Positions 28,709 to 44,020 of a stretch of 64,000 bases of DNA are shown here, piece by piece (position 1 is the first letter of the stretch; each line of letters starts with the position of its first letter). Made by a program: the position numbers and the translations under genes. The stretch is from Holophagales bacterium (GTDB taxonomy: Bacteria; Acidobacteriota; Thermoanaerobaculia; Multivoradales; UBA5704): NCBI GenBank assembly GCA_031390755.1, contig JANMTS010000035.1:28758-92757 (forward strand), given 5' to 3'. The notes below the pieces were generated by a model, which was given only the letters and a program-made list of their open reading frames with translations, did no database searches and was not told the DNA's origin.

Positions 28709-30178
28709 ATGCCCCTTACATTCAGGATTCGAGCCGTCCGCCTCCTTCTCATCACCTGCCTCGGGTGTCTTCCCGGGGCCGCCGCCGCGTTCGCCCAGCC
28801 TGATCTCTTTCCCCTCCGGGGGGAGGTGACCGGCTGGAATGGGCCGATCGCCGGAGCCACGCTCACCCTGGAGATGGAAGGCCTGCCGCCGAAGACGATC
28901 GTCACGGACGAGTCCGGCCTGTTCCTCTTCGAGGGGCTGCCCGCCGGGCCGTACCGCCTGAAGATCGTGGTTCCCGGGATCAACCCCTTCGAGCATGTCG
29001 GCGTCATCGACGCCCTGACGACCCGGGAGGAGCTCGTCGTCAATTGTCACCTCATCCGCGACGGCGGCCGCGGCACGGTGACGAGCCGGCCGCTGGCTGA
29101 GGCGACTCCAAGCTTCGAGGTTCTGCCGGTGCCGCCGCTCCAGCCGCGGGACGACGAGGGCTTCGCCGAGGTGGAGATCTTCTATGGCACGGACCGGAAG
29201 CTCCGCTCGGGCGACCCGGTGGAGACGCGCTTCGGACCGCAGCGGATGTCGTGGCCCGGCATCCACCTGGGCATCGGGCGGGTCAGCATCCCGCGCGACC
29301 ACCGGATGGGGCAGATCGAGCGGCCGTCCATCTGGAAGCTGGAATTCACGCCGGACCCGCGCGAGCACGTGGTGCTCCTCGGAGTCGAGCCGCTCAACAA
29401 GCAGACGTTCTATCAGCGCCTCCGGGGGAAGCTCGGGAAGTCGGGGGAGAAGGAGCTGATGGTCTTCGTCCACGGCTTCAACGTCTCGTTCCACGACGCG
29501 GCCCTGCGCACGGGCCAGCTCGCCTACGACCTCGGCCTGGACGGCGCGCCGGTCCTCTACAGCTGGCCGTCGATGGGATCGGTCAACAGCTACACGGTCG
29601 ACGAGGCTTCGGTGGAGTGGACGGTGCCGCACCTGGAAGGTTTCCTGCGCGATCTATCGGAGCGCTCGGGGGCGCGGTCGATCTATCTGATCGCGCACAG
29701 CATGGGGAACCGCGCGATGACCCGCGCTCTGGAGCGCATTGCGCTCAAGATGAAGGCCGGCGCGAAGGCGCCGTTCCACCAGATCGTGCTCACCGCGCCG
29801 GACGTGGACGCGGATGTCTTCGCGGACCTGGCGAAGAGCTTTCGCCGGACCGCCGAGCGGGTGACGCTCTACGCGTCGTCGAACGACGAGGCGCTCAAGG
29901 TTTCCAAGAAGATTCACGGCTACCCGCGGGCCGGGGAGACCACTCCGAACGTGCTGATCGTGCCGGGGGTGGACACGATCGACGTCTCCACCGTGGACAC
30001 GAGCTTCCTGGGCCACTCGTACTTCGGGGACAGCTGCTCGGTCATCGCCGACCTCACGACGCTGCTGCGGAAGCGCCAGCCGCCGGAACGGCGCACCGGG
30101 CTGACGAAGAAGCAGAAGGCGGCGAATCTGTCGTACTGGGCGTTTGCCGGGGCGGACGCGTGCCCGACGGCGCCGTAA
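28709..30178 (+). CDS. Secreted alpha/beta-hydrolase of DUF900 family with N-terminal carboxypeptidase-regulatory-like beta-sandwich domain (paralog 1)
   Basis: 489 aa with a signal peptide. GATLTLEMEGLPPKTIVTDESGLFLFEGLPAGPYRLKI (CarbopepD_reg-like). Hydrolase blocks FVHGFNVSF and LIAHSMGNRA (GxSxG). AGGAGA RBS 8 nt upstream. Confidence 0.65.
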   Translation: MPLTFRIRAVRLLLITCLGCLPGAAAAFAQPDLFPLRGEVTGWNGPIAGATLTLEMEGLPPKTIVTDESGLFLFEGLPAGPYRLKIVVPGINPFEHVGVIDALTTREELVVNCHLIRDGGRGTVTSRPLAEATPSFEVLPVPPLQPRDDEGFAEVEIFYGTDRKLRSGDPVETRFGPQRMSWPGIHLGIGRVSIPRDHRMGQIERPSIWKLEFTPDPREHVVLLGVEPLNKQTFYQRLRGKLGKSGEKELMVFVHGFNVSFHDAALRTGQLAYDLGLDGAPVLYSWPSMGSVNSYTVDEASVEWTVPHLEGFLRDLSERSGARSIYLIAHSMGNRAMTRALERIALKMKAGAKAPFHQIVLTAPDVDADVFADLAKSFRRTAERVTLYASSNDEALKVSKKIHGYPRAGETTPNVLIVPGVDTIDVSTVDTSFLGHSYFGDSCSVIADLTTLLRKRQPPERRTGLTKKQKAANLSYWAFAGADACPTAP

Positions 30179-32396: not shown

Positions 32397-32501
32397 CTCC
32401 CGTTTCCGTTCAGTCCTGAGCTTTCCATCAACCCGCGCCGATAAGCGCGGCGGGCGGTGCCTTCGGGCTCCCCCGAGGACCGACAGAAGGAGCTACGTTT
32501 C

Positions 32502-33821
32502 ATGTCTGAAAGTCGACGCGATTTTCTGCGCCTCGGCGTGACCGGTGTCGCCACCGCCGCGGCCGGGCTGGTCGCCGCCCGCGCGCAAACGCCGCCCATA
32601 CCGCCCACGCCGCCGGTGGACCATTCCGGCCACGACATGGGCCAGATGGCCCCTCAGCCTGAAGCCAAGCCGGCGGCACCGGCGGCGTCCAAGCCCCGGA
32701 CAGCCGAGAGGCGGACCGGTCAACCCTCCTACATCCCCGTCGAGACCCCGGACATCCCGCGGATGCCCTGGCGCATGGACGGCAACGTCAAGGTCTTCCA
32801 CATCACCTGCGACGTGGTCAAGAGCCGCTTCGTGCCCTGGCGGGAGACCAACACCTGGGGCTACAACGGCTCCACACCCGGCCCCACGGTCGAGGCCGTG
32901 GAGGGCGACCGGGTGCGCTTCGTGGTGGAGAACCGCCTCCCCGAGGCCACCGTCATGCACTGGCACGGGCTGGAAGTTCCGATCGAGATGGACGGCGTCG
33001 AGGGCATCACCCAGGACTTCATCGCCCCGGGCGACAGGTTCGTCTACGAGTTCACGCTGCGGCAGAACGGCACGTTCTTCTACCACTCGCACCGGCCCAT
33101 GCAGCAGATGATGGGCATGATCGGCCTCTTCATCGTCCACCCGAAGACGGCCCACACGCCGCGCTGCGACCGCGACTTCGGGCTCATTCTTCAGGAGTGG
33201 GCCACGCTGCCGAGCAACACCACGCCCAACACGCTGGCGATGGAGTTCAACTGGCTGACGATCAACGGCAAGTCGGCGCCGTCCACCACGCCGATGCTGG
33301 TGCGGCTGGGCGAGCGGGTCCGCATCCGCTTCGTGAACCTCGGGATGGACCATCACCCGATGCACATGCACGGGCACACCTGGTACACCACCGGCACCGA
33401 GGGCGGGCGCATCCCGCGCGCGCTCTGGCGGCCGGGCAACACCGAGCTGATCGGCGTGGCCCAGGCGCGGGACGTGGAGTTCGTGGCCAACAACCCCGGG
33501 GACTGGATGCTCCACTGCCACCTCCCCCACCACATGATGAACACCATGGCCTCGATGGTCGGGCCGATGTCCGATCCGGCGCACCAGCACATGGGGCCGG
33601 TGGCTCCGAACGCGCGCGAGGTCCCGGGCTATCCCCAGGACATGTACATGGTGATGGACGACGCGATCAAGAAGCCCGAGGCCCACGGCCTGCGCCCCGG
33701 GTGGACGGGCGCCATGATGGGCATGATGACCCTCGTCCGGGTGCTCAAGCCGGAGATGTGGGACCGGATCCAGGAGCTCAAAACCGAGACGCTCAAGGCC
33801 CAGGCGCGAGGTGAGGGATGA
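32502..33821 (+). CDS. TAT-exported multicopper oxidase (CopA/CueO-like)
   Basis: TAT motif SRRDFLRLGVTGVATAAAG. Copper-site blocks HWHGLEV, HSHRPMQQMMGMIGLFIVHP, HPMHMHGHTWY, HCHLPHHMMNTM; Met-rich segments. Confidence 0.8.
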   Translation: MSESRRDFLRLGVTGVATAAAGLVAARAQTPPIPPTPPVDHSGHDMGQMAPQPEAKPAAPAASKPRTAERRTGQPSYIPVETPDIPRMPWRMDGNVKVFHITCDVVKSRFVPWRETNTWGYNGSTPGPTVEAVEGDRVRFVVENRLPEATVMHWHGLEVPIEMDGVEGITQDFIAPGDRFVYEFTLRQNGTFFYHSHRPMQQMMGMIGLFIVHPKTAHTPRCDRDFGLILQEWATLPSNTTPNTLAMEFNWLTINGKSAPSTTPMLVRLGERVRIRFVNLGMDHHPMHMHGHTWYTTGTEGGRIPRALWRPGNTELIGVAQARDVEFVANNPGDWMLHCHLPHHMMNTMASMVGPMSDPAHQHMGPVAPNAREVPGYPQDMYMVMDDAIKKPEAHGLRPGWTGAMMGMMTLVRVLKPEMWDRIQELKTETLKAQARGEG

Positions 33822-35224
33822 ACGCCCTGCGCAGCCTGATCCTGGGCGGGAGCTTCCTGCTCCTCGCCGGCGCCGCCCTTGCCCAGCACGAGCATCATCA
33901 GCCGGCTGCTCCCGTAGCGCCAGCAATGGAGACGCCGGCCGCGCCGGAACCCTACGCGCTGCCGGCTCCGGCGTCCGATCCGGGCCTGCCGGCGTACACG
34001 CTGGACGACCTCGAACGCCGCGCCCTGGAGCACAACCCGGCGCTCGCCCAGGCCGAGGCGATGGTCCGCGCTGCCGACGCCCGGGCGCGGCAGGCGGGGA
34101 TGTGGCCGAATCCGGTGATCGGCTACACCGCGGAGGACGTCCCCACCGGCGACCTGGACGCCGGCAGCCACGGCGTGTTCGTCTCTCAGGAGATCCCCCT
34201 GGGCGGCAAGCTGGGACTGAGCCGGCAGGTCCAGACGCGGGACGCGGAACGGGCGCGGATCGACGCGGAGGCCCGGCGGCTGGAGGTGCTGGCCGGGCTG
34301 CGCGGTCAGTACTACCGGGTGCTCGCGGCACAGCAGACCGTCCGGGTGCGGGAGCAGCTCTCGGCCCTGGCGCAGGAGACCGTCGACATCACCGGCCAGC
34401 TCTTCAACACGGGCCTGGCCGACTCGCCCGACCGGCTCGCGGCCGAGACCGAGTCGAGCCTCGCGGAAGCCGATCTCTCGGAAGCCCGCATCGATCTGGA
34501 CCAGAGTTGGGCCGCGCTGCGGGCCGCGGTGGGCGACGGGAGCCTGGAGCCCGGCGTGCTCCAGGGCGACCTCGCGGCGCTGCCGGAGCTCGACCGGCAG
34601 GAGTGGCTGGAGCGGGTGCTGGCGGAAAGCCCGCGCGCCCGACTGGCCACCGCCCAGGCCGGGAGAGCCCGGGCGGCGCTCGCCCGCGCCCGGGCCGAGC
34701 GGCTGCCGGACCTCGCGATCGAGGCCGGCGTGCGGAAGAACCGCGGCGGCCGGAGTGTTCTAGAGGATGGAGAGAAAGAAGCCTTCGCGGACATCGGCTT
34801 CCGGGTGCCGCTGTTCAACCGCAACCAGGGGGGCATCGCCGCCGCCGAGGCCGAGACGGCCGTCGCCGGCCTGGAGAGCGACCGGGCCCGGCTCGCCCTG
34901 GAGTCCAGCTTCGCCGGGACCTGGTCCCGCTATCGATCCGAGAGGCAGCGGGCCGAAGCCTTCAGAGACGGCATCCTCGATCGGGCGCGCACCGCCCACC
35001 GGCAGTACCTGGAGCAGTACCGACAGATGAACGCCAACTACTCGCAGGTCTTAAGCGCCCAGCAGACGCTCTTCCGCCTGGAAGAGGATTATGTGATGAC
35101 GCTGGAACGGGCTTGGCAGGCGGCCGTCTCCGTGCAGAGTCTTCTTGCAGCCGAGCTGGCAGCCGAGCCCTCCGGAATGAACGTCGAAGACAACCAGAGC
35201 GCGGCCTCCGAGCGCCGCCATTAA
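33818..35224 (+). CDS. TolC-family outer-membrane efflux protein (CusC-like)
   Basis: 468 aa with a signal peptide and TolC-type repeats (..LTLDDLERRALEHNPALAQAEA.., ..QQTLFRLEEDYV..). ATGA overlap with the oxidase gene. Confidence 0.7.
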   Translation: MNALRSLILGGSFLLLAGAALAQHEHHQPAAPVAPAMETPAAPEPYALPAPASDPGLPAYTLDDLERRALEHNPALAQAEAMVRAADARARQAGMWPNPVIGYTAEDVPTGDLDAGSHGVFVSQEIPLGGKLGLSRQVQTRDAERARIDAEARRLEVLAGLRGQYYRVLAAQQTVRVREQLSALAQETVDITGQLFNTGLADSPDRLAAETESSLAEADLSEARIDLDQSWAALRAAVGDGSLEPGVLQGDLAALPELDRQEWLERVLAESPRARLATAQAGRARAALARARAERLPDLAIEAGVRKNRGGRSVLEDGEKEAFADIGFRVPLFNRNQGGIAAAEAETAVAGLESDRARLALESSFAGTWSRYRSERQRAEAFRDGILDRARTAHRQYLEQYRQMNANYSQVLSAQQTLFRLEEDYVMTLERAWQAAVSVQSLLAAELAAEPSGMNVEDNQSAASERRH

Positions 35225-35239
35225 AGATTGGAGTTTCCC

Positions 35240-35776
35240 ATGTTGAAGCGACTCGCAACCCTGTCCGCCGCCGCGCTGCTCGCCACGTTCGCGGCCGTCC
35301 CCGTCCTCGCGCAGAGCCACGACCACAAAGCCCACGATGACCACGGCAAGGCGCACGGCAAGGCCGAGGCCGGGCAGTGCCCGCACCATAAGGCCGTCTC
35401 CGCGTCCATGAACCAGGCGATGGCCCTGCTCGACGCGGCCCTGGCCACGAAAGACCATTCCCAGATGACCGCCAAGGCCACCGAGGCCCGCAAGCAGCTC
35501 GCGAGCATGAAGGAGCACATGGCGAAGTGCGAGGCGATGTGCAAGGAGATGAGCTGCACGATGGACCACGGCGCCATGAACCACGGCGCCATGAACCAGC
35601 CGGCCGCCCAGCCGGTCAAGGACACGAAGGTGACCGACCTCGTCTGCGGCATGAAGATCGAAGCCGCCACCGCCGCCGCGAAGTCGGTCTACGCCGGCAA
35701 GACCTACTTCTTCTGCTCGATGGATGAGAAGGCGACGTTCGACAAGGATCCGGAGAGCTTCTTGAAGAAAAGCTGA
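35240..35776 (+). CDS. Secreted YHS-domain metal-binding protein (His/Met-rich)
   Basis: Start ATG 35240 with a GGAG RBS. Signal peptide. HDHKAHDDHGKAHGKAE, CPHHK. C-terminal YHS/TRASH motif DLVCGMKIEAATAAAKSVYAGKTYFFCSMDEKATF. Confidence 0.65.
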   Translation: MLKRLATLSAAALLATFAAVPVLAQSHDHKAHDDHGKAHGKAEAGQCPHHKAVSASMNQAMALLDAALATKDHSQMTAKATEARKQLASMKEHMAKCEAMCKEMSCTMDHGAMNHGAMNQPAAQPVKDTKVTDLVCGMKIEAATAAAKSVYAGKTYFFCSMDEKATFDKDPESFLKKS

Positions 35777-35820: not shown

Positions 35821-36806
35821 CTATTGCGCCGCTGCCCCTGCCTCTCGAAACCGCCGCACCACCTCCGCCACCGGCAAGATCTCCTCGATCCCCTCCACGC
35901 TCCGGCCTGCCTGGAGATAGTCCTTGTAGGAGAACGAGCGCAGCGACGAGCGCTTCAGCTTCCAGAGGGATTGGAGCGAGTAGATCATCCTATCCAGTGC
36001 TTGGTTCTGCGGCCCTTGAGCATCCAGCGGCCGAGCGGGCCGGCCTTCGTGCCCAGCCTCTCGATGTAGGGCGTGCGGATCACCGAGACCGGCACGCCGG
36101 TCATGCGCTCGGTGAGGACGATGTCCGACTCCCGGGCCTTGAGAATGGCCTGCTTGTAGTCGGGGTGGGCCGTGCATTCCGCGGTGGCGATGAAGCGGGT
36201 GCCCATCTGGACTCCGGCATAGCCCATGCGCAGGGCGCTTACGAAGCCCTCCTCGTCGCCGATGCCGCCGGCGCAGACCACGGGCACGCCGAGATCGTGA
36301 AGCTCGGCGTAGAGCTCCTCGATCCCCTTGGTCCCGGCGTGGCCGCCGGCCCGGTTGTTCACCGCGATGAGGCCGTCGACTTGCGCTTCCAGCCCCTTCA
36401 TCGCCCAGCGGCGGTCGGTCACGTCGTGGTAGACGCGGCCGCCCGCGGCGTGGGCCTTCTCCACCACCCAGCGCGGGTTTCCGAGCGAGGTGACGAAGAA
36501 GCGGATGCCCTCTTCGATGGCCGTGTCCACGTAGCGCTGCATGCGCTCCTCGTAGACCTTGGAGGAGCGCTCGACGATCACGTTCATCCCCACCGGTTTC
36601 GTGGTGAGGCTGCGGATGAGCCGGATTCCGGCGCGCAGCTCGTGGCCGTGGACGTAGACGAGGGAGAGGGGCTGGAGGACGCCGATGGCCCCCGCCTCTG
36701 AGGCGGCGGCCACCAGCTCCGGGTTGCTGCAGGGGTACATCGCACCGCACACGATCGGCACCTCGATGCCGAGCTGCGCGGTGAGCGCAGTCTGGAGTTG
36801 GGACAT
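35821..36806 (-). pseudogene. Nitronate monooxygenase (NMO/2-nitropropane dioxygenase family) with an apparent -1 frameshift near 36005-36012 (C-run)
   Basis: N-terminal 273 aa lie in one frame (..IVCGAMYPCSNPELVAAASEAGAIGVL.., ..GGIGDEEGFVSALRMGYAGVQMGTRFIATAEC..) ending RWMLKGRRTKHWIG*. The protein-like C-terminus (QNQALDRMIYSLQSLWKLKRSSLRSFSYKDYLQAGRSVEGIEEILPVAEVVRRF) lies in the -1 frame. Restoring one C in ggcc(c)gcag rejoins them. It could also be a sequencing error. Confidence 0.6.
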
Positions 36807-37234: not shown

Positions 37235-38536
37235 ATGCACACAATGAATCGTGAGCTTCTCCTCGAACGATACCGAGCCACCCGCAACCTGACGCTCGAC
37301 CTCTGCCGCCCTCTCCGCGCGGAGGACTACCGCATCCAGTCCATGCCGGACGTCAGCCCGCCGTGGTGGAATCTCGGCCATACCACCTGGTTCTTCGCCA
37401 AGAACGTCCTCGAGCCGTTCGGCCGCTATCTGCCGGAGGACGCCCGGCTCGAATTCGTCATGAACTCCTACTACGAGGCCCTCGGACCGCGCATCCAGCG
37501 CGACCACCGCGGCCTCGTCTCGCGGCCGACCAACGACGAGGTCTACCGCTTCCGCGAGTCGGTCGACGCCCGCATGGAGGAGCTGATCCGCGGCGCCTCC
37601 GAGGACGACCTGCCGCAGCTCGAATTCCTCGTCGTGACGGGCGTCCAGCACGAGCAGCAGCACCAGGAGCTGCTGGTCACCGAGATCAAGCACATCCTGG
37701 GCAGCAACGGTCCGGAGATGCGCGAGCCCTACCGGGAAGCAACGGCTGAGCCGCACAAGGCTCCAGAGGCCAGTTGGGTGTCGTTCGAGGGCGGGCTGCA
37801 GGAGATCGGCAACCTGGACGGCGGCTGGTGCTGGGACAACGAGGTGCCGATCCACAAGGCCTGGCTCGACGGCTTCCGCCTTCTCAACCGGCTGGTCACG
37901 AACCGGGACTACCTGGAGTTCATGGAGGACGGCGGTTACACCAATCCGCTCCTCTGGCTGTCGAACGGCTGGGCCAGGGTTCGCGAGCACGACTGGACCG
38001 CTCCGCTGTACTGGGAGAAGGATGGAAACGGCTGGCGGTCGTGGACGCTCTCCGGCACGCGCGCGGTTGATCCCGACGAGCCGGTCTGCCATGTGAGCTT
38101 CTACGAGGCCGAGGCCTATGCCCGCTGGAAGGGCGCGCGCCTGCCCACCGAGCGCGAGTGGGAGCACGCGTCGCGGGTCGCGGGGTTTCCCGGCAAAAGC
38201 GCTGGCAAGGACGCGGGCAAGGACGCCAACTTCCTCGACACCGGCGCCCTGCACCCCCGGGCTCCCCGCGGAGACGCCGACGGCTCGCTCGTCCAGATGG
38301 GCGGCGACGTCTGGGAGTGGACGACCAGCCACTACGAGCCCTATCCCGGCTACCGGCCGTTCGAAGGCGTCCTGATGGAGTACAACGGCAAATTCATGGA
38401 CAATCAGAGGGTGCTGCGCGGCGGCTCGTGCGCCACGCCGGCCAATCACATCCGCGCCAGCTACCGGAACTTCTGGCCCGCCGACGCCCGGTTCCAGTTC
38501 ACGGGCATCCGGCTGGCGAAGGACGGAGGCGAATAG
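37235..38536 (+). CDS. egtB: EgtB-like non-heme iron sulfoxide synthase (DinB_2 + FGE-sulfatase fold; ergothioneine/ovothiol-type)
   Basis: 433 aa. DinB-like N-terminal domain with NLGHTTWFF and VTGVQHEQQHQELL (His metal ligands). C-terminal FGE-like domain VSFYEAEAYARWKGARLPTEREWEHA, GDVWEWTTSHYEPYPGY, RGGSCATP. No egtD/egtC is adjacent. Confidence 0.65.
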   Translation: MHTMNRELLLERYRATRNLTLDLCRPLRAEDYRIQSMPDVSPPWWNLGHTTWFFAKNVLEPFGRYLPEDARLEFVMNSYYEALGPRIQRDHRGLVSRPTNDEVYRFRESVDARMEELIRGASEDDLPQLEFLVVTGVQHEQQHQELLVTEIKHILGSNGPEMREPYREATAEPHKAPEASWVSFEGGLQEIGNLDGGWCWDNEVPIHKAWLDGFRLLNRLVTNRDYLEFMEDGGYTNPLLWLSNGWARVREHDWTAPLYWEKDGNGWRSWTLSGTRAVDPDEPVCHVSFYEAEAYARWKGARLPTEREWEHASRVAGFPGKSAGKDAGKDANFLDTGALHPRAPRGDADGSLVQMGGDVWEWTTSHYEPYPGYRPFEGVLMEYNGKFMDNQRVLRGGSCATPANHIRASYRNFWPADARFQFTGIRLAKDGGE

Positions 38537-38598
38537 CGAGGCCAATAGCGAGGGAAACAGCGCGGTCTGTCCGTCTAGAGTCCCCAAGGGGGTAGCCG

Positions 38599-41451
38599 AT
38601 GCCCGATTCTCCGGAGCCGAAGTCGAAGCCGATCGCCATGGTGGAGGGCTCCGGCCCCCTGCTTTCGCTGTTCGACCGGGCCTATCCCAAGGCGCTCCGG
38701 GACGAGGAAGAGACGATCCTCAAGGCCCGCCGCAGGCAGGCCGGTCTCGGCGCCGATCCCGTCGATCCTGCGGGCCGGCTGGGTGTGGGCCTCTCGGGCG
38801 GCGGCATCCGGAGCGCCACCTTCTGCCTCGGCCTCTTCCAGGCCATGGCCCAGCGCTCCGGGCTGCTGCGCCGGATCGATTTCCTCTCCACCGTCTCCGG
38901 CGGCGGCTACTTCGGCACCTTCTACGGCCGCCTCCTCACCCGCGGCTTCGTCAAGGACGCCGACCACGCCGAGAAGATCCTCCGCGGCGAGGAGGACCCG
39001 GGCGTCCTCAAGTACCTCCGGGAGAACGGCCGCTATCTCTCCCCGAACGGCTCGGGCGACATGCTCCTGGGCGGCGCGGTGCTGCTGCGCAACTGGCTGT
39101 CGATCCACGTGGTGCTCGCGATCTCGGCCCTGGCACTCTGCCTCGGCCTTCAGGTGCCGCGCGCCCTGCCGGCCCTCGCCGGCATCGTGAAGCCTCTGGA
39201 ATCCATGGCGGCGGAGCTGCCGCTCTCCGCCTCGATCTGGTGGAGCCCCTACTCCATCCTCCCGCTGTTCGTCTTCCTGTTCGCGGCGATCCCGATCGGC
39301 TGGGCCTACTGGCTGGTGCGGCCCGTCGGCCAGTCGATGAGCGCGGGGACCGGACGGGAGTCGGTGTGGCCCTCCTGGCTGGCCTGCGTGGCGGCGCTGG
39401 CGCTGGGCATCGCGCTGCCCTACTTCAACCTGGATCTCAACATGCCGGTGGTCTGGCACGGCGTGGCCGCCGTAGCCGGGGCCACGATCGTGTGGCGTTT
39501 CCTGGCCTTTCTCCAGCGTGTCCGGGATCCCGCTGCCGTGCCGGACCCGGACGCAGGTGCCAGGCGCGACTCCCAGGCCGCGCGGGACTTCAAGGCCGAA
39601 GCGTCGAAGGACAAGGAAAGGGTGTCCTGGAAGCTGTTCGTCAATGCAACGATCCGCCACCGGCTGTCCCTCTGGGTAACCCGCGCCCTGCTGCTGTCCG
39701 CCGGGCTGTTCGCCGTGGCCCTGGTCGACACCCTGGGCCAGAGCCTGTACGTGACGCTCCGCAAGTCGGGCGCCGCCGGCCTCTCGCTCGCCGGGATCTT
39801 CGGCGCGCTCACGACCTTCGCGGGCTTCGCGCGGCGCATCGTCGTGATGTTTTCCGGCGGCAAGCGCGACCGTCCGCCGGTCCCCCTGAAGCTCGTGGCC
39901 ACGGTCGTGGCGCTGCTGCTGGCCGGTTTCTACCTGGTCACGATCGACGCGGCGGCGCACGCGATCGCCTGGACGTTCCACATTCCGCTCGACGCCCCGG
40001 AAGCGCTCCGGCCCGCCGCGGCCACGGCCGCCGAGCTCGGAGCCGTCAGGTATCCTCCGGCGGCCTTCGTGGGCTTCCTGGCCAGCCTGGGGCTGGCGTT
40101 CCTGTTCGGCAAGACGTTCTCGTTCATCAACAACTCGTCCCACAACCAGCTCTACTCCTCGCGCCTGTGCCGCGCCTACCTCGGAGCCTCCAACGAAGCC
40201 CGTTGGAAGCGCGGCCGGGGCGTGACAGAGGTTCTGCGGGACGACGACTGCGACGTCGCCACCTACTGGCCGCCGCTCGAAGCGAACGCAGCGCCGCTCC
40301 ACCTGATCAACGTCACGATCAACGAGACCGTGGACGGCCGGTCCCAGGTCCAGCAGCAGGACCGCAAGGGCACGGGCCTGGCGATCGGGCCTTGCGGCAT
40401 GAGCGCCGGCATCGAGCACCACGCGGTGATCGCCTTCGGCAAGCCGAAGAACACCGACCCCTTCGGCCAGCCGGTCAAGGTGTATCCCGAGATCAAGGAC
40501 GACAAGCGTCCTCCCTACCGCGTGTTCGAGTACAAGGGGGAGGACGGCAACGAGCGCTTCCGCGGCGAGCCGCTGCCCGTCGGCTCCTGGGTCGGCATCT
40601 CCGGCGCGGCGTTCTCGACCGGGACCGGCTACCGCACGAGCCTGGGGCTGAGCCTGCTCGCCGGCCTCGCCAACGTGCGGATCGGGCGCTGGTGGGATTC
40701 CGGGGTCCGGCGCGGAAAGCACTCGCACTCGCTCATGGCGACCCGCGTCGAGCGGTTCCTGGCGAAGATCTTCCCGGTCCAGATCTACCTGCTCGACGAA
40801 TTCTTCGCCCGCTTCCCGGGGACGGCTCGACAGTACTGGTATCTGTCGGACGGAGGGCACTTCGAGAACATGGGAGGCTACGAGCTGATCCGCCGGCGCC
40901 TGCCCCTGATCGTGATCGTGGACGCCGAACAGGATGCGGACGCCAACTTCGAGGGCATGGCGAGCCTGATCCTCAAGGCCCGGCTGGACTTCGCGGCGGA
41001 GATCGAGTTTCTTAGCGATACCCAGCTCGACGGCATAACCCGGCCCGAGATCCAGGCCATCCGGCGGCACCTGGGGCCGCTCGACAAGCTACGCCGCGGG
41101 CGCTGGGAGGACGGCAAGCTGGGCGAAGTCGACCGCGCGGGGTACTCTCTGGCCCACGCGGCGCTCGCCCGCGTCACCTACCGGTTCCCCGACCAGGAGT
41201 CGTGGCTGCTCTACATCAAGCCGACCCTGACCGGGGACGAGTCCGCCGATGTCCTCAACTATCACAAGGCCCATCCGGACTTCCCCCACGAATCGACGGG
41301 GGACCAGTTCTTCGACGAAGCGCAGTGGGAGAGCTATCGCAAGCTGGGAGAGCACATCGGGGCGCTGCTGGTCGCGGGGATGCCAGTCGTCCCGACGCCT
41401 CCGGCCGGGCCGGCACCCGCTACCAACCCTCCGTCCCCGGCTCACCCTTGA
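38599..41451 (+). CDS. Patatin-like phospholipase-family protein with a large polytopic membrane insertion between the catalytic Ser and Asp motifs
   Basis: 950 aa. Oxyanion-hole motif GLSGGGIRSATFCLG. Nucleophile motif STVSGGGYFG (GxSxG) near residue 110. About 8 hydrophobic helices span residues about 150-500. The Asp motif YLSDGGHFENMGGYELI comes near residue 755. Confidence 0.7.
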   Translation: MPDSPEPKSKPIAMVEGSGPLLSLFDRAYPKALRDEEETILKARRRQAGLGADPVDPAGRLGVGLSGGGIRSATFCLGLFQAMAQRSGLLRRIDFLSTVSGGGYFGTFYGRLLTRGFVKDADHAEKILRGEEDPGVLKYLRENGRYLSPNGSGDMLLGGAVLLRNWLSIHVVLAISALALCLGLQVPRALPALAGIVKPLESMAAELPLSASIWWSPYSILPLFVFLFAAIPIGWAYWLVRPVGQSMSAGTGRESVWPSWLACVAALALGIALPYFNLDLNMPVVWHGVAAVAGATIVWRFLAFLQRVRDPAAVPDPDAGARRDSQAARDFKAEASKDKERVSWKLFVNATIRHRLSLWVTRALLLSAGLFAVALVDTLGQSLYVTLRKSGAAGLSLAGIFGALTTFAGFARRIVVMFSGGKRDRPPVPLKLVATVVALLLAGFYLVTIDAAAHAIAWTFHIPLDAPEALRPAAATAAELGAVRYPPAAFVGFLASLGLAFLFGKTFSFINNSSHNQLYSSRLCRAYLGASNEARWKRGRGVTEVLRDDDCDVATYWPPLEANAAPLHLINVTINETVDGRSQVQQQDRKGTGLAIGPCGMSAGIEHHAVIAFGKPKNTDPFGQPVKVYPEIKDDKRPPYRVFEYKGEDGNERFRGEPLPVGSWVGISGAAFSTGTGYRTSLGLSLLAGLANVRIGRWWDSGVRRGKHSHSLMATRVERFLAKIFPVQIYLLDEFFARFPGTARQYWYLSDGGHFENMGGYELIRRRLPLIVIVDAEQDADANFEGMASLILKARLDFAAEIEFLSDTQLDGITRPEIQAIRRHLGPLDKLRRGRWEDGKLGEVDRAGYSLAHAALARVTYRFPDQESWLLYIKPTLTGDESADVLNYHKAHPDFPHESTGDQFFDEAQWESYRKLGEHIGALLVAGMPVVPTPPAGPAPATNPPSPAHP

Positions 41452-41932
41452 AAGGGCCGACGACGTCTTTCGTGATCCACCCCCCGTAGAAGCCGCCGGG
41501 CTGGGGGGTGACCCGCTCGCCGTCCACGAAGCAGGCCTCCATGAGGCCCGGGTAGAAGGCGACATGGTTCTGCAGCTCCTCGAACATCCGGGTGGGCTGC
41601 TCATAGAACCAGGCCGCCGACTTGACGCGGACGCCGTTCACGTCGATGTCGTAGTAGTGGGTCAACCCCTTCCACTCGCACCAGCTCGCATCCTCGTTCT
41701 CCCGGAAGAATTCCTTGCGGATGTCCTCCGGCGGGATGTACCAGACGGGCGGGTGGCTCGTCTCCAGCACGCGCCTGGCCCGGCGCGTCTCGGCGATCAG
41801 CACGCCGTTGAACCAGACCTGGACGTGGCGGGAGCTGGCCTCGGTCCGCGGCGGACGGGGGTAGTCCCAGACGGATTCCTGGCCTGGCGCGGGCTCGATG
41901 GGGACGGGAACGGGGATCGGCTGGTGTCTCAT
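41420..41932 (-). CDS. DUF427-domain protein (paralog 2)
   Basis: 170 aa with WCEWKGLTHYYDI and AAWFYEQP. Its 3' end overlaps the patatin gene 3' end by 32 nt (convergent). Confidence 0.7.
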   Translation of the reverse strand: MRHQPIPVPVPIEPAPGQESVWDYPRPPRTEASSRHVQVWFNGVLIAETRRARRVLETSHPPVWYIPPEDIRKEFFRENEDASWCEWKGLTHYYDIDVNGVRVKSAAWFYEQPTRMFEELQNHVAFYPGLMEACFVDGERVTPQPGGFYGGWITKDVVGPFKGEPGTEGW

Positions 41933-43117: not shown

Positions 43118-44020
43118 CTACGGCGCGATCGGGGTCTCCGAGTCCTGGCTCCTGCCGCCGAACAGGCGCTTGATCCCGGCTCCCAGCGCGGCGACGGCGA
43201 GCACCACGAGCTTCCAGCCCTTCGCCAGGAACTTGCCGATCACGGCAAAGAGACCCATCTTCGCTGCTGCCGCGCCGGCGCCGCCGGCCACCAGGGCGGT
43301 GAGGCCGTACTCGGCGACCTTGTCGCCGGGCAGCCATTCCGCGTACCGGCCGCCCTGATCGAAAGAGAACCCGGCGAGCAGCGACTGCACGTGCGGCAGG
43401 TCCGCGGCCAGCGCCTGCGGGTCGGTCACCAGCGTCGCGGAGACATAACCCCGGCGGCCGAGGAGGCGGACGTCGTAGTTGACCAGTGCCGACTCCCCGC
43501 CCTTGCCTTCGATGGCCCAGACCAGGTTGTTCGTGCGGCTATCATAGTGCGGCTTCTCGAACCAGCCGGTCACGTGAACCGGATCGGAGCCCATCTTCTG
43601 GCGCTCCTCGTTGGCGGCCTCGGTTCCTTCCTGGATCGACTTCAGGAGAGCGTCCGCGTCGATCTCGTCCTTCTCGTCGACCTAGACGTAGCCGACCTCC
43701 TGGAACTCGAACACCAGGAACCAGCTCTTCGACTCCTCGGCCGGAGCGATCAGGCCGATCTCGGTGTCGGTCGGCGGGTTGCCGGTCATCTCCATGATCT
43801 TCTTGGTCTCCGCCTTGTCGGCGAAGAGGTAACCCTCGGGGACCTTGATCGTGGCCAGGCCGTTTCCGAGCTGGGCGGTGGTGGGCCCGGGGATCCACTG
43901 GATCGGCTGGCCGGGATCTTCCGAGGTTTCCTGGGCGGACACCCCTGCCGTGAGGCCCCCAACCAGGACCGCCAGGATGACGAGGACGACAGGCAGACAA
44001 CGCAGCATTCTGAGGCTCAT
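43118..44020 (-). pseudogene. Membrane-anchored protein (DUF2167/COG4929-like?) interrupted by an in-frame TAG at 43682..43684
   Basis: The two track ORFs (43682..44074 and 43118..43594) are in the same frame. Read-through gives ..FEFQEVGYV*VDEKDEIDADALLKSIQEGTEAANEERQKMGSDPVHVTGWF.. There is an N-terminal signal/TM and a C-terminal TM (LFAVIGKFLAKGWKLVVLAVAALGA). A single AAG/CAG to TAG change would explain it. Pseudogene versus error is unresolved. Confidence 0.5.

Follow-up and report, generated by a model that had tools for sequence, protein, structure and literature searches.

A putative patatin/cPLA2-like hydrolase with eight membrane helices between its catalytic-type motifs in a Holophagales bacterium

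The genome of a Holophagales bacterium (assembly GCA_031390755.1) contains a gene for a protein that is likely to be a patatin/cPLA2-superfamily enzyme whose catalytic domain is divided by a membrane domain. The gene lies at 38599..41451 on the forward strand of the stretch analysed here, the 64,000 nucleotides of contig JANMTS010000035.1 from position 28,758 to 92,757 (hereafter the window), and all residue numbers refer to its 950-residue product, the window protein. Motifs of the oxyanion-hole and nucleophile type are found near the N-terminus and a motif of the catalytic aspartate type far towards the C-terminus, with eight transmembrane (TM) helices between them. We hold the assignment to the superfamily and the division of the catalytic domain with considerable confidence. 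The full explanation, in which the protein would also serve the remodelling of membrane lipids, is favoured with less assurance, as a rather probable account. An earlier note on this DNA had read the protein as a patatin split by a polytopic insert; a superfamily enzyme with separated motifs is what emerged, whereas a match to canonical patatin did not, and the cPLA2 enzymes are nearer.

Layout of the protein and conservation of its motifs

The coding sequence is a real gene. Its GC content by codon position (0.68/0.49/0.91) is that of the other genes of this high-GC window, and a ribosome-binding-like sequence, AAGGGGG, lies 6 nucleotides (nt) 5' of its ATG. The parts of the gene and its product are as follows.

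38599..41451, forward strand: whole coding sequence of the putative split patatin/cPLA2-like hydrolase, a single open reading frame (ORF) of 950 residues
38656..39051, forward strand: N-terminal catalytic piece, residues 20-151, delimited from AlphaFold secondary structure, the Pfam Patatin match in relatives and the cPLA2-delta and VipD alignments
38788..38814, forward strand: GLSGGGIRS, residues 64-72, with the oxyanion-hole motif G-G-G-x-R
38887..38916, forward strand: STVSGGGYFG, residues 97-106, the nucleophile elbow (T-V-S-G-G) with the putative catalytic Ser100
39052..40113, forward strand: membrane insert with eight TM helices, residues 152-505, from hydropathy and AlphaFold
40114..40839, forward strand: middle soluble region, residues 506-747, from conservation
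40840..40878, forward strand: YLSDGGHFENMGG, residues 748-760, with the putative catalytic Asp751 in a D-G-G motif
40879..41373, forward strand: C-terminal part, residues 761-925, from conservation, with the strand LIVIVDAE

The three catalytic-type motifs stand where the earlier note had placed them. In the N-terminal piece a first strand is followed by the oxyanion loop, a helix, a second strand, the nucleophile elbow, further helices and the conserved motif LRENGRYLSPNGxGD, which leads into the first TM helix. The middle region carries the motifs LYSxRLxRAYLGASN, PLHLINVTINETVDGRSQxQQQDRKG and WVGISGAAFSTGxGxRTSLGLS, and presumably comprises the remainder of the alpha/beta core together with a cap-like part, while the C-terminal part closes with the conserved motif FPHExTxDQFFDEAQWESYRxLG. 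Ser100 and Asp751 are 651 residues apart with all eight TM helices between them, and across the family this distance ranges from 582 to 758 residues. The domain of about 600 residues described earlier as membrane-embedded does contain a polytopic insert, but only some 350 residues (152-505) belong to the membrane part, and the approximately 245 residues before the aspartate are soluble. Conservation follows the same division, the mean identity of 98 aligned homologues to the window protein being 0.57 over residues 506-747 versus 0.32 over the membrane part.

These 98 sequences all carry S66, G67-G69, R71, S100, G752 and G753, and 97 of them carry D751, the remaining relative having Asn. Since the catalytic-type motifs are nearly or fully invariant among the homologues, their presence is not a matter of chance. 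Two positions depart from the textbook patterns. The residue that follows the oxyanion Arg71 is Ser72, as opposed to the trailing Gly of the patatin motif G-G-G-x-[KR]-G, and the first position of the nucleophile motif, residue 98, is Thr in 94 sequences and Ser in four, and never Gly. The serine and the last glycine (G102, invariant) of the canonical G-x-S-x-G motif are thus present, while the strict motif is not. The single relative with a changed aspartate (P0108, locus L094:6001-8898) reads SNGGHFEN at this place and keeps all other motifs; it may be an inactive variant or the result of a sequencing error.

Kinship with the patatin and cPLA2 enzymes

Profile libraries reach the family only at its margin. 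The window protein had no significant match in Pfam, where only noise at E of about 0.1 and no Patatin match at E<=1 were obtained, and no NCBIfam match at E<=1. Pfam Patatin (PF01734) was borderline in 7 of 25 relatives, with scores of 25-29 bits against a gathering cut-off of 27.7, and the matches were confined to profile positions 2-69 of 191, where the oxyanion loop and the nucleophile elbow lie. By itself the N-terminal part thus does not make up a whole fold; a complete patatin fold there had been named earlier as a finding that would overturn the split reading. PLA2_B (PF01735) was detected in two of the 25 relatives (best E=0.042) and not in the window protein. When a family profile was compared with the sequences of the PDB, the best match was cPLA2-delta (E=0.046), followed by VipD (E=0.42), both by way of the N-terminal segment, and the STVSGGGYFG region was aligned with the nucleophile motif G-I-S-G-S of cPLA2-delta. 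A second and very weak HMMER stretch placed WYLsDGGhFEN on EYIADGGILDN of VipD, which by our own count is the motif of its catalytic Asp288.

Structure prediction points in the same direction. The full-length AlphaFold model, built from the alignment of 98 sequences, had a predicted local distance difference test score (pLDDT) of 85.5 and a predicted template-modelling score (pTM) of 0.85. Its N-terminal piece runs from a strand (61-67) through the oxyanion loop, a helix and a second strand (93-98) to Ser100 and a helix (101-114), and the succession of strand 93-98 and helix 101-114 fits the geometry of a nucleophile elbow. In the C-terminal piece a strand (746-751) ends at Asp751 and is followed by a short helix and a further strand (770-776). 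In a Foldseek search of the PDB the catalytic domains of cPLA2-delta and cPLA2-alpha came first, with probabilities of 0.96-1.0, and alignments to cPLA2 of 481-637 columns outscored those of 115 columns confined to the N-terminal piece. VipD, ExoU and patatin ranked lower, with probabilities below 0.2, so that the closest solved structures to the model are cPLA2 catalytic domains and not canonical patatin.

The cPLA2 enzymes (cPLA2-alpha, 1CJY; cPLA2-delta, 5IXC/5IZ5/5IZR) share with the window protein the G-G-G-x-R motif with its Arg, a Ser after strand 2 and an Asp in D-x-G. They also resemble it in that a long stretch of chain with additional structure separates Ser from Asp; in cPLA2-alpha Ser228 and Asp549 are about 320 residues apart, and the intervening chain includes a cap. 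The two differ in several respects: the element inserted in the window protein includes eight TM helices, there is neither a C2 nor any other Pfam domain, the oxyanion motif comes after no more than some 60 residues, and PLA2_B is barely detected in relatives, and in none of their C-terminal halves. The cPLA2 enzymes are moreover eukaryotic whereas the present family is bacterial, and in contrast to the Ca2+-dependent recruitment of cPLA2 the window protein would be permanently integrated in the membrane.

With the patatins (PF01734: Pat17, ExoU, VipD, PlpD, CapV and RssA/YjjU) the motif logic of G-G-G-x-[KR], elbow and D-G-[GA] is held in common. Ser and Asp are about 140 residues apart in patatins, however, as compared with 651 in the window protein, which also has T-x-S-x-G at the elbow and is not matched by the whole-domain model. 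Enzymes of the PNPLA6/NTE type and other membrane-anchored patatin enzymes are patatin lipases tethered by TM segments, and act on membrane phospholipids or lysophospholipids from the cytoplasmic side. Their anchor lies outside an uninterrupted catalytic domain, unlike the eight helices placed here between Ser and Asp, and no sequence relationship between them and the family was detected. The proteins combining Patatin and DUF3376 are likewise large bacterial patatin-family proteins of unknown function, and one of them shares a gene cluster with a long family member (P0060, locus L006); they differ in having a full Pfam Patatin match in addition to DUF3376, whereas the family studied here matches neither DUF3376 nor any NCBIfam model.

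Membrane insert, topology and proposed mechanism

Eight hydrophobic segments were found by hydropathy within residues 157-504, and the same eight helices appear in the AlphaFold model (approximately 157-184, 217-238, 257-275, 285-305, 358-376, 392-418, 432-455 and 486-504), in agreement with the at least eight helices counted between the motifs in the earlier note. The architecture with the insert between the motifs is conserved family-wide. The membrane part measures 299-438 residues across the family, and a crude count gave seven to eight hydropathy peaks in 87 of 98 relatives. No signal peptide was found in the window protein, in which about 150 hydrophilic residues precede the first TM helix. 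Lysine and arginine (K+R) are enriched in the even-numbered loops of the insert, which by the positive-inside rule predicts that both ends are cytoplasmic. The means for the 98 sequences are as follows.

Loop 1, predicted periplasmic: mean K+R 2.2, mean length 32 residues
Loop 2, predicted cytoplasmic: mean K+R 4.1, mean length 21.5 residues
Loop 3, predicted periplasmic: mean K+R 1.1, mean length 11 residues
Loop 4, predicted cytoplasmic: mean K+R 7.0, mean length 35 residues
Loop 5, predicted periplasmic: mean K+R 0.7, mean length 15 residues
Loop 6, predicted cytoplasmic: mean K+R 3.0, mean length 14 residues

Because the number of helices is even and the N-terminus is predicted to be inside, both catalytic pieces would be cytoplasmic, as is required if they form one domain. 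Two sets of positions in the insert are conserved to at least 88%. One is on the cytoplasmic interface (R164, N165, W235, W238 and R425), and the other, on the predicted periplasmic face, consists of Q185, R188, W214, S216, D377, Q381, Y384, H454 and W458 (nt ~39151-39972), which are polar or aromatic and far from the predicted cytoplasmic active site.

In the explanation that we favour, the window protein would be an integral inner-membrane lipid acyl hydrolase, of phospholipase A or lysophospholipase type, with a single cytoplasmic alpha/beta catalytic domain built from two stretches of chain. Residues ~20-151 would supply the G-G-G-x-R oxyanion loop and the Ser100 elbow and residues ~506-925 would supply Asp751 in D-G-G, while the bundle of eight helices (152-505), which interrupts the chain directly behind the post-nucleophile helices, would let both pieces exit on the cytoplasmic side and pack together. 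The region after the nucleophile contributes lid or cap elements in patatins and cPLA2, and from its position at this place the insert may therefore hold the Ser-Asp site permanently at the inner leaflet and guide membrane lipid into it. It would in this way replace the recruitable modules of soluble relatives, such as the C2 domain of cPLA2 and the C-terminal bundle of ExoU, and the protein would act, as the product of a stand-alone gene, in the turnover and remodelling of the cell's own membrane lipids. What the analysis shows is the architecture, the invariance of the motifs, the size and spread of the family, a predicted topology, one confident model and the absence of conserved partners; the dyad geometry, the hydrolase activity, the substrate and the physiological role are here what we infer.

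Assessment of the split-domain explanation and of competing explanations

Asp751 is likely to be the catalytic partner of Ser100, as suggested by its motif, its near-invariance, the local secondary structure, the single confident model and the topology. That the D-G-G motif belongs to the cognate half of the domain had been proposed in the earlier note, and these properties together with the AlphaFold and Foldseek results speak for it, whereas the sequence-based tests were negative or uninformative. A number of observations weigh against the explanation as a whole. The first Gly of G-x-S-x-G is replaced by Thr. Foldseek gave weak E-values, 5e-3 being the best, and the long alignments are geometrically poor, with a root-mean-square deviation of 11-24 A and a template-modelling score of 0.25-0.30. 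A profile of the C-terminal half gave only noise against the PDB sequences, 22 C-terminal halves searched against Pfam at E<=10 yielded no Patatin or PLA2_B match, and an 82-residue profile of the Asp segment that included distant members had no match in the PDB at E<=10. In hhalign, a profile from which the insert had been deleted reached probabilities of only 1.2% against RssA and 0.3% against YjjU of E. coli, with the alignment confined to the N-terminal motifs, and a hidden Markov model (HMM) built on the Asp segment did not outscore its results on shuffled sequences. Finally, the conserved polar residues of the periplasmic face are not accounted for by a simple role of anchoring and guiding.

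A likeness by eye of YLSDGGHFENMGGYELIRRRLPLIVIVDAE to WLVDGAVVNPIPISLTRALGADIVIAVDLQ of RssA was noted and is not counted as evidence, the segment HMM having done no better than on 2,000 shuffles.

When the C-terminal half (residues 506-950) was modelled in isolation from an alignment of 22 sequences, its pLDDT fell to 54 and a fold search returned noise (kinesins, phosphatases). Confidence was lost over residues 506-760, a stretch that includes the middle soluble region, which is confident only in the full-length model, and residues ~765-895 were still modelled confidently (pLDDT 74-93). This loss may hint at a half-domain in need of its N-terminal partner, but the low confidence is confounded by the shallower alignment (22 versus 98 sequences).

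Since the conserved periplasmic-face residues are not explained by a passive anchor, the insert could have a more active part. The protein might represent a new class of intramembrane-fed lipase in which the eight-helix bundle replaces a cPLA2-like lid or cap as an active conduit; periplasmic-face residues would capture or sense a lipid, a lysolipid or another signal and deliver it to the Ser-Asp site or gate that site, assisted in some lineages by a small upstream or fused membrane subunit. We put this forward tentatively, as a possibility with a modest chance of being right.

Related to this is a coupled transporter-hydrolase, in which the insert would import or flip lipids or lysolipids, drawn from the outer leaflet or the periplasm, and hand them to the cytoplasmic Ser-Asp site, much as in lysophospholipid salvage by LplT/Aas but within one chain. 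The nine periplasmic-face positions and the set at the cytoplasmic interface, which a passive anchor should not need, would be in keeping with it, as would the subclade (see below) in which a small protein of five to six helices is encoded upstream or fused. The insert shows no likeness to a transporter in fold or sequence, however: Foldseek gave no meaningful match to known membrane folds (probability <0.1) and Pfam gave noise. An internal 4+4 repeat is likewise unsupported (test probability 1.3%), no other part of the protein is on the whole less conserved than the insert, and conservation is the only source of the idea, which we consider unlikely.

A further question is whether the C-terminal D-G-G takes part in catalysis at all. 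Other residues, such as S668 in G-I-S-G-A, H607/H608 or D588, could serve instead, or the protein could be a non-catalytic, lipid-binding membrane protein in which only relic patatin motifs are left at the N-terminus. The failure of every sequence-level comparison of the C-terminal half with patatin and cPLA2 speaks for this; S668, H608 and D588 are invariant too, the nucleophile motif is without its first Gly, and P0108 has Asn in place of Asp751. A relic would not, however, have kept S100, G-G-G-x-R and D-G-G invariant across phyla, and S668 lies inside a helix (661-669) of the AlphaFold model and not in a strand-turn-helix elbow. The full-length model is moreover one confident unit, and its best cPLA2 matches reach beyond the N-terminal piece. 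We see only a slim chance for this alternative.

Size and distribution of the family

The split-domain protein belongs to a very large family that is without a curated model. More than 2,300 homologues came out of a word-indexed search, and where these carry a name it is 'hypothetical protein'. When 1.84 billion representatives (clusters at 50% identity) were searched exhaustively with a profile, 20,922 matched at E<=1e-3, and 14,843 and 7,381 still did so at E<=1e-10 and E<=1e-30, the best 150 being 699-1,430 residues long. Among one-genome-per-species reference genomes the family occurs in at least 219 species of more than 10 phyla, with hosts in Acidobacteriota, Verrucomicrobiota, Planctomycetota, Gemmatimonadota, Gamma- and Deltaproteobacteria, Myxococcota, Rokubacteria and others. 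One host, Paludisphaera soli JC670, is a cultured isolate, and further hosts in culture, at 30-38% identity, came from plasmid and chromid records. In Cupriavidus metallidurans CH34 the copy is intact; it lies on the minus strand of NC_007974.2 at about 141045-143870, is 941 residues long by our own ORF call in a part of the record that is not annotated, matches with both halves (E=7e-24 and 8e-58) and carries all signature motifs. RefSeq names the copy of Azospirillum ramasamyi 'patatin-like phospholipase family protein', and UniProt lists it as 'Uncharacterized protein'. Full-text searches of the literature found no paper on an architecture of split patatin with a membrane insert.

On a plasmid of Hymenobacter volaticus (NZ_CP095064.1) a family member is annotated as two genes, L089:1563-3911 for an N-terminal piece of 782 residues with the membrane part and L089:4016-5194 for a C-terminal piece of 392 residues with the DGG motif. 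This copy also has an additional soluble N-terminal extension of about 290 residues. A natural two-subunit enzyme was considered and rejected; the gap of 104 bp between the genes still encodes the missing VNEFS motif, so that the division is probably due to a frameshift.

Genomic context

All flanking ORFs within 5 kb were clustered for 87 loci, and no neighbour family was found in more than six of them. Observed in this way, the gene behaves as a stand-alone gene. Recurrence of EgtB, DUF427 and DUF2167 is restricted to the closest relatives. The adjacency of EgtB was seen in the window and its counterpart L001 and in L002 and L008 (~68% identity), and at the other loci none of the neighbour families was an EgtB cluster. 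A functional link to EgtB, or membership in an Egt cluster, was rejected because the adjacency is not conserved and is limited to relatives that are ~68-100% identical; the significance attached earlier to the EgtB neighbourhood was therefore not borne out. Eleven neighbourhoods that were annotated with Pfam held unrelated metabolic genes (glycosyltransferases, purD, pta, kdp, thiolase, hydantoinase and luciferase-like oxidoreductases).

Known defence systems count patatin-like lipases, for example CapV, among their effectors, and the earlier note had pointed to anti-phage systems. The gene could accordingly encode a single-gene abortive-infection or suicide effector, a latent membrane lipase that would destroy the membrane on a phage cue, possibly sensed by the insert. 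The precedent of the known systems, the patchy distribution and variable genomic context of the family and the sporadic presence of toxin or mobile genes at a few loci (PIN at L002, Ntox5 and PemK at L003, IS21 at L006, Uma2 at L092) agree with such a role. Against it, no PADLOC model was matched even at E<=1, no match was found among 50,697 phage records or in a library of viral folds, and no sensor, cyclase (such as a CD-NTase) or other system gene recurs in the 87 loci; the eleven neighbourhoods annotated with Pfam contained no sensor or signal-generating gene either. Most neighbourhoods consist instead of ordinary metabolic genes, and chromosomal synteny is kept in close relatives. With all four lines of search negative, a defence role was rejected as the leading explanation and appears improbable. 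A transacylase that shifts acyl chains between membrane lipids and releases no fatty acid is very improbable. Such activity is known in some patatin/cPLA2-superfamily enzymes, and a site buried against the bilayer could keep water out; conserved acyl-carrier or lipid-synthesis genes were not found near the gene in the 87 loci.

One partner does recur. In at least nine loci (L003:7207-8004, L004:7229-8008, L092:5336-6001, L010, L011, L012, L020, L022 and L024) the gene for a membrane protein of 220-300 residues with five to six helices immediately precedes that of the family member, in many cases overlapping its start codon, and in seven homologues of 1,182-1,285 residues (P0030, P0040, P0056, P0059, P0060, P0062 and P0071) the same small protein is fused N-terminally. 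Its fusion in the longer homologues suggests that it is a functional partner in this Thermoanaerobaculia/Acidobacteriota subclade; the window is without it, and the small protein has no Pfam or NCBIfam match.

Two individual loci contain genes that may bear on lipids. Just upstream of the homologue on the chromid of C. metallidurans CH34 (L088:3801-4775) is what looks like a fusion of DedA and rhodanese, a single case below curated cut-offs; DedA proteins have been linked to membrane lipid handling. On the Acidobacteriota chromosome OY969474.1 (L006:1-701 onward) the 1,255-residue P0060 ends a run of genes on the same strand, comprising a Patatin+DUF3376 protein, an unknown protein of 854 residues, a GMC oxidoreductase, a weak DUF4331 match and an unknown protein of 390 residues, with IS21 after P0060. 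This run could be a lipid-related cluster in that lineage.

Surroundings of the gene in the window

The neighbouring features of the window are as follows.

32457-33821, forward strand: multicopper oxidase
33818-35224, forward strand: outer-membrane efflux protein
35228-35776, forward strand: YHS-domain protein
35985-36806, opposite strand: NMO-family gene, upstream neighbour of the EgtB gene
37235..38536, forward strand: EgtB (ergothioneine biosynthesis; TIGR03440, E=1.8e-155), 62 nt 5' of the window protein gene
38575..41070, reverse strand: antisense ORF of 831 residues, no gene
41420-41932, reverse strand: DUF427 gene
43118-44020, reverse strand: DUF2167 gene

The antisense ORF was called spurious in the earlier note, and rightly so, since the codon-position GC values of this ORF (0.92/0.49/0.67) mirror those of the sense frame and mark it as a by-product of the high third-position GC of the sense strand. 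The adjoining EgtB-like enzyme of that note is indeed EgtB. No terminator-like site was found in the 62-nt gap between the EgtB gene and the window protein gene, and the two may be co-transcribed in the window. No methyltransferase-like gene directly adjoins the EgtB gene, with no search for EgtD made elsewhere in the window. The first three genes form a copper-related cluster (32457-35776) further upstream.

On the other side, the DUF427 gene is convergent with the window protein gene and overlaps its 3' end by 32 nt (41420-41451); the same gene follows the homologue in the close relatives L001 and L002. The DUF2167 gene further downstream is divided into two ORFs by an in-frame stop (...QEVGYV*VDEKD...). 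Over 6.3 kb the public contig L001 is identical to the window apart from two bases, at 43680 and 43684, which are substituted, and its version of this gene encodes an intact protein of 300 residues; the stop in the window may mark a pseudogene or a variant of the strain, or it may be an error in the sequence.

Implications

The family marks a considerable gap in annotation. Thousands of 'hypothetical' clusters in Acidobacteriota, Verrucomicrobiota, Planctomycetota, Gemmatimonadota, Myxococcota and Proteobacteria are concerned, and about 800 of the 950 residues are without coverage by a Pfam or NCBIfam model. Intact homologues in cultured bacteria, including C. metallidurans CH34, make the predictions directly testable. 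The soluble enzymes of the patatin/cPLA2 superfamily need to be recruited to the membrane, and how a lipid is extracted from the bilayer is a central question for the superfamily. A membrane domain built into the catalytic domain would, if true, make these proteins naturally and permanently docked enzymes, and thereby a good structural subject.

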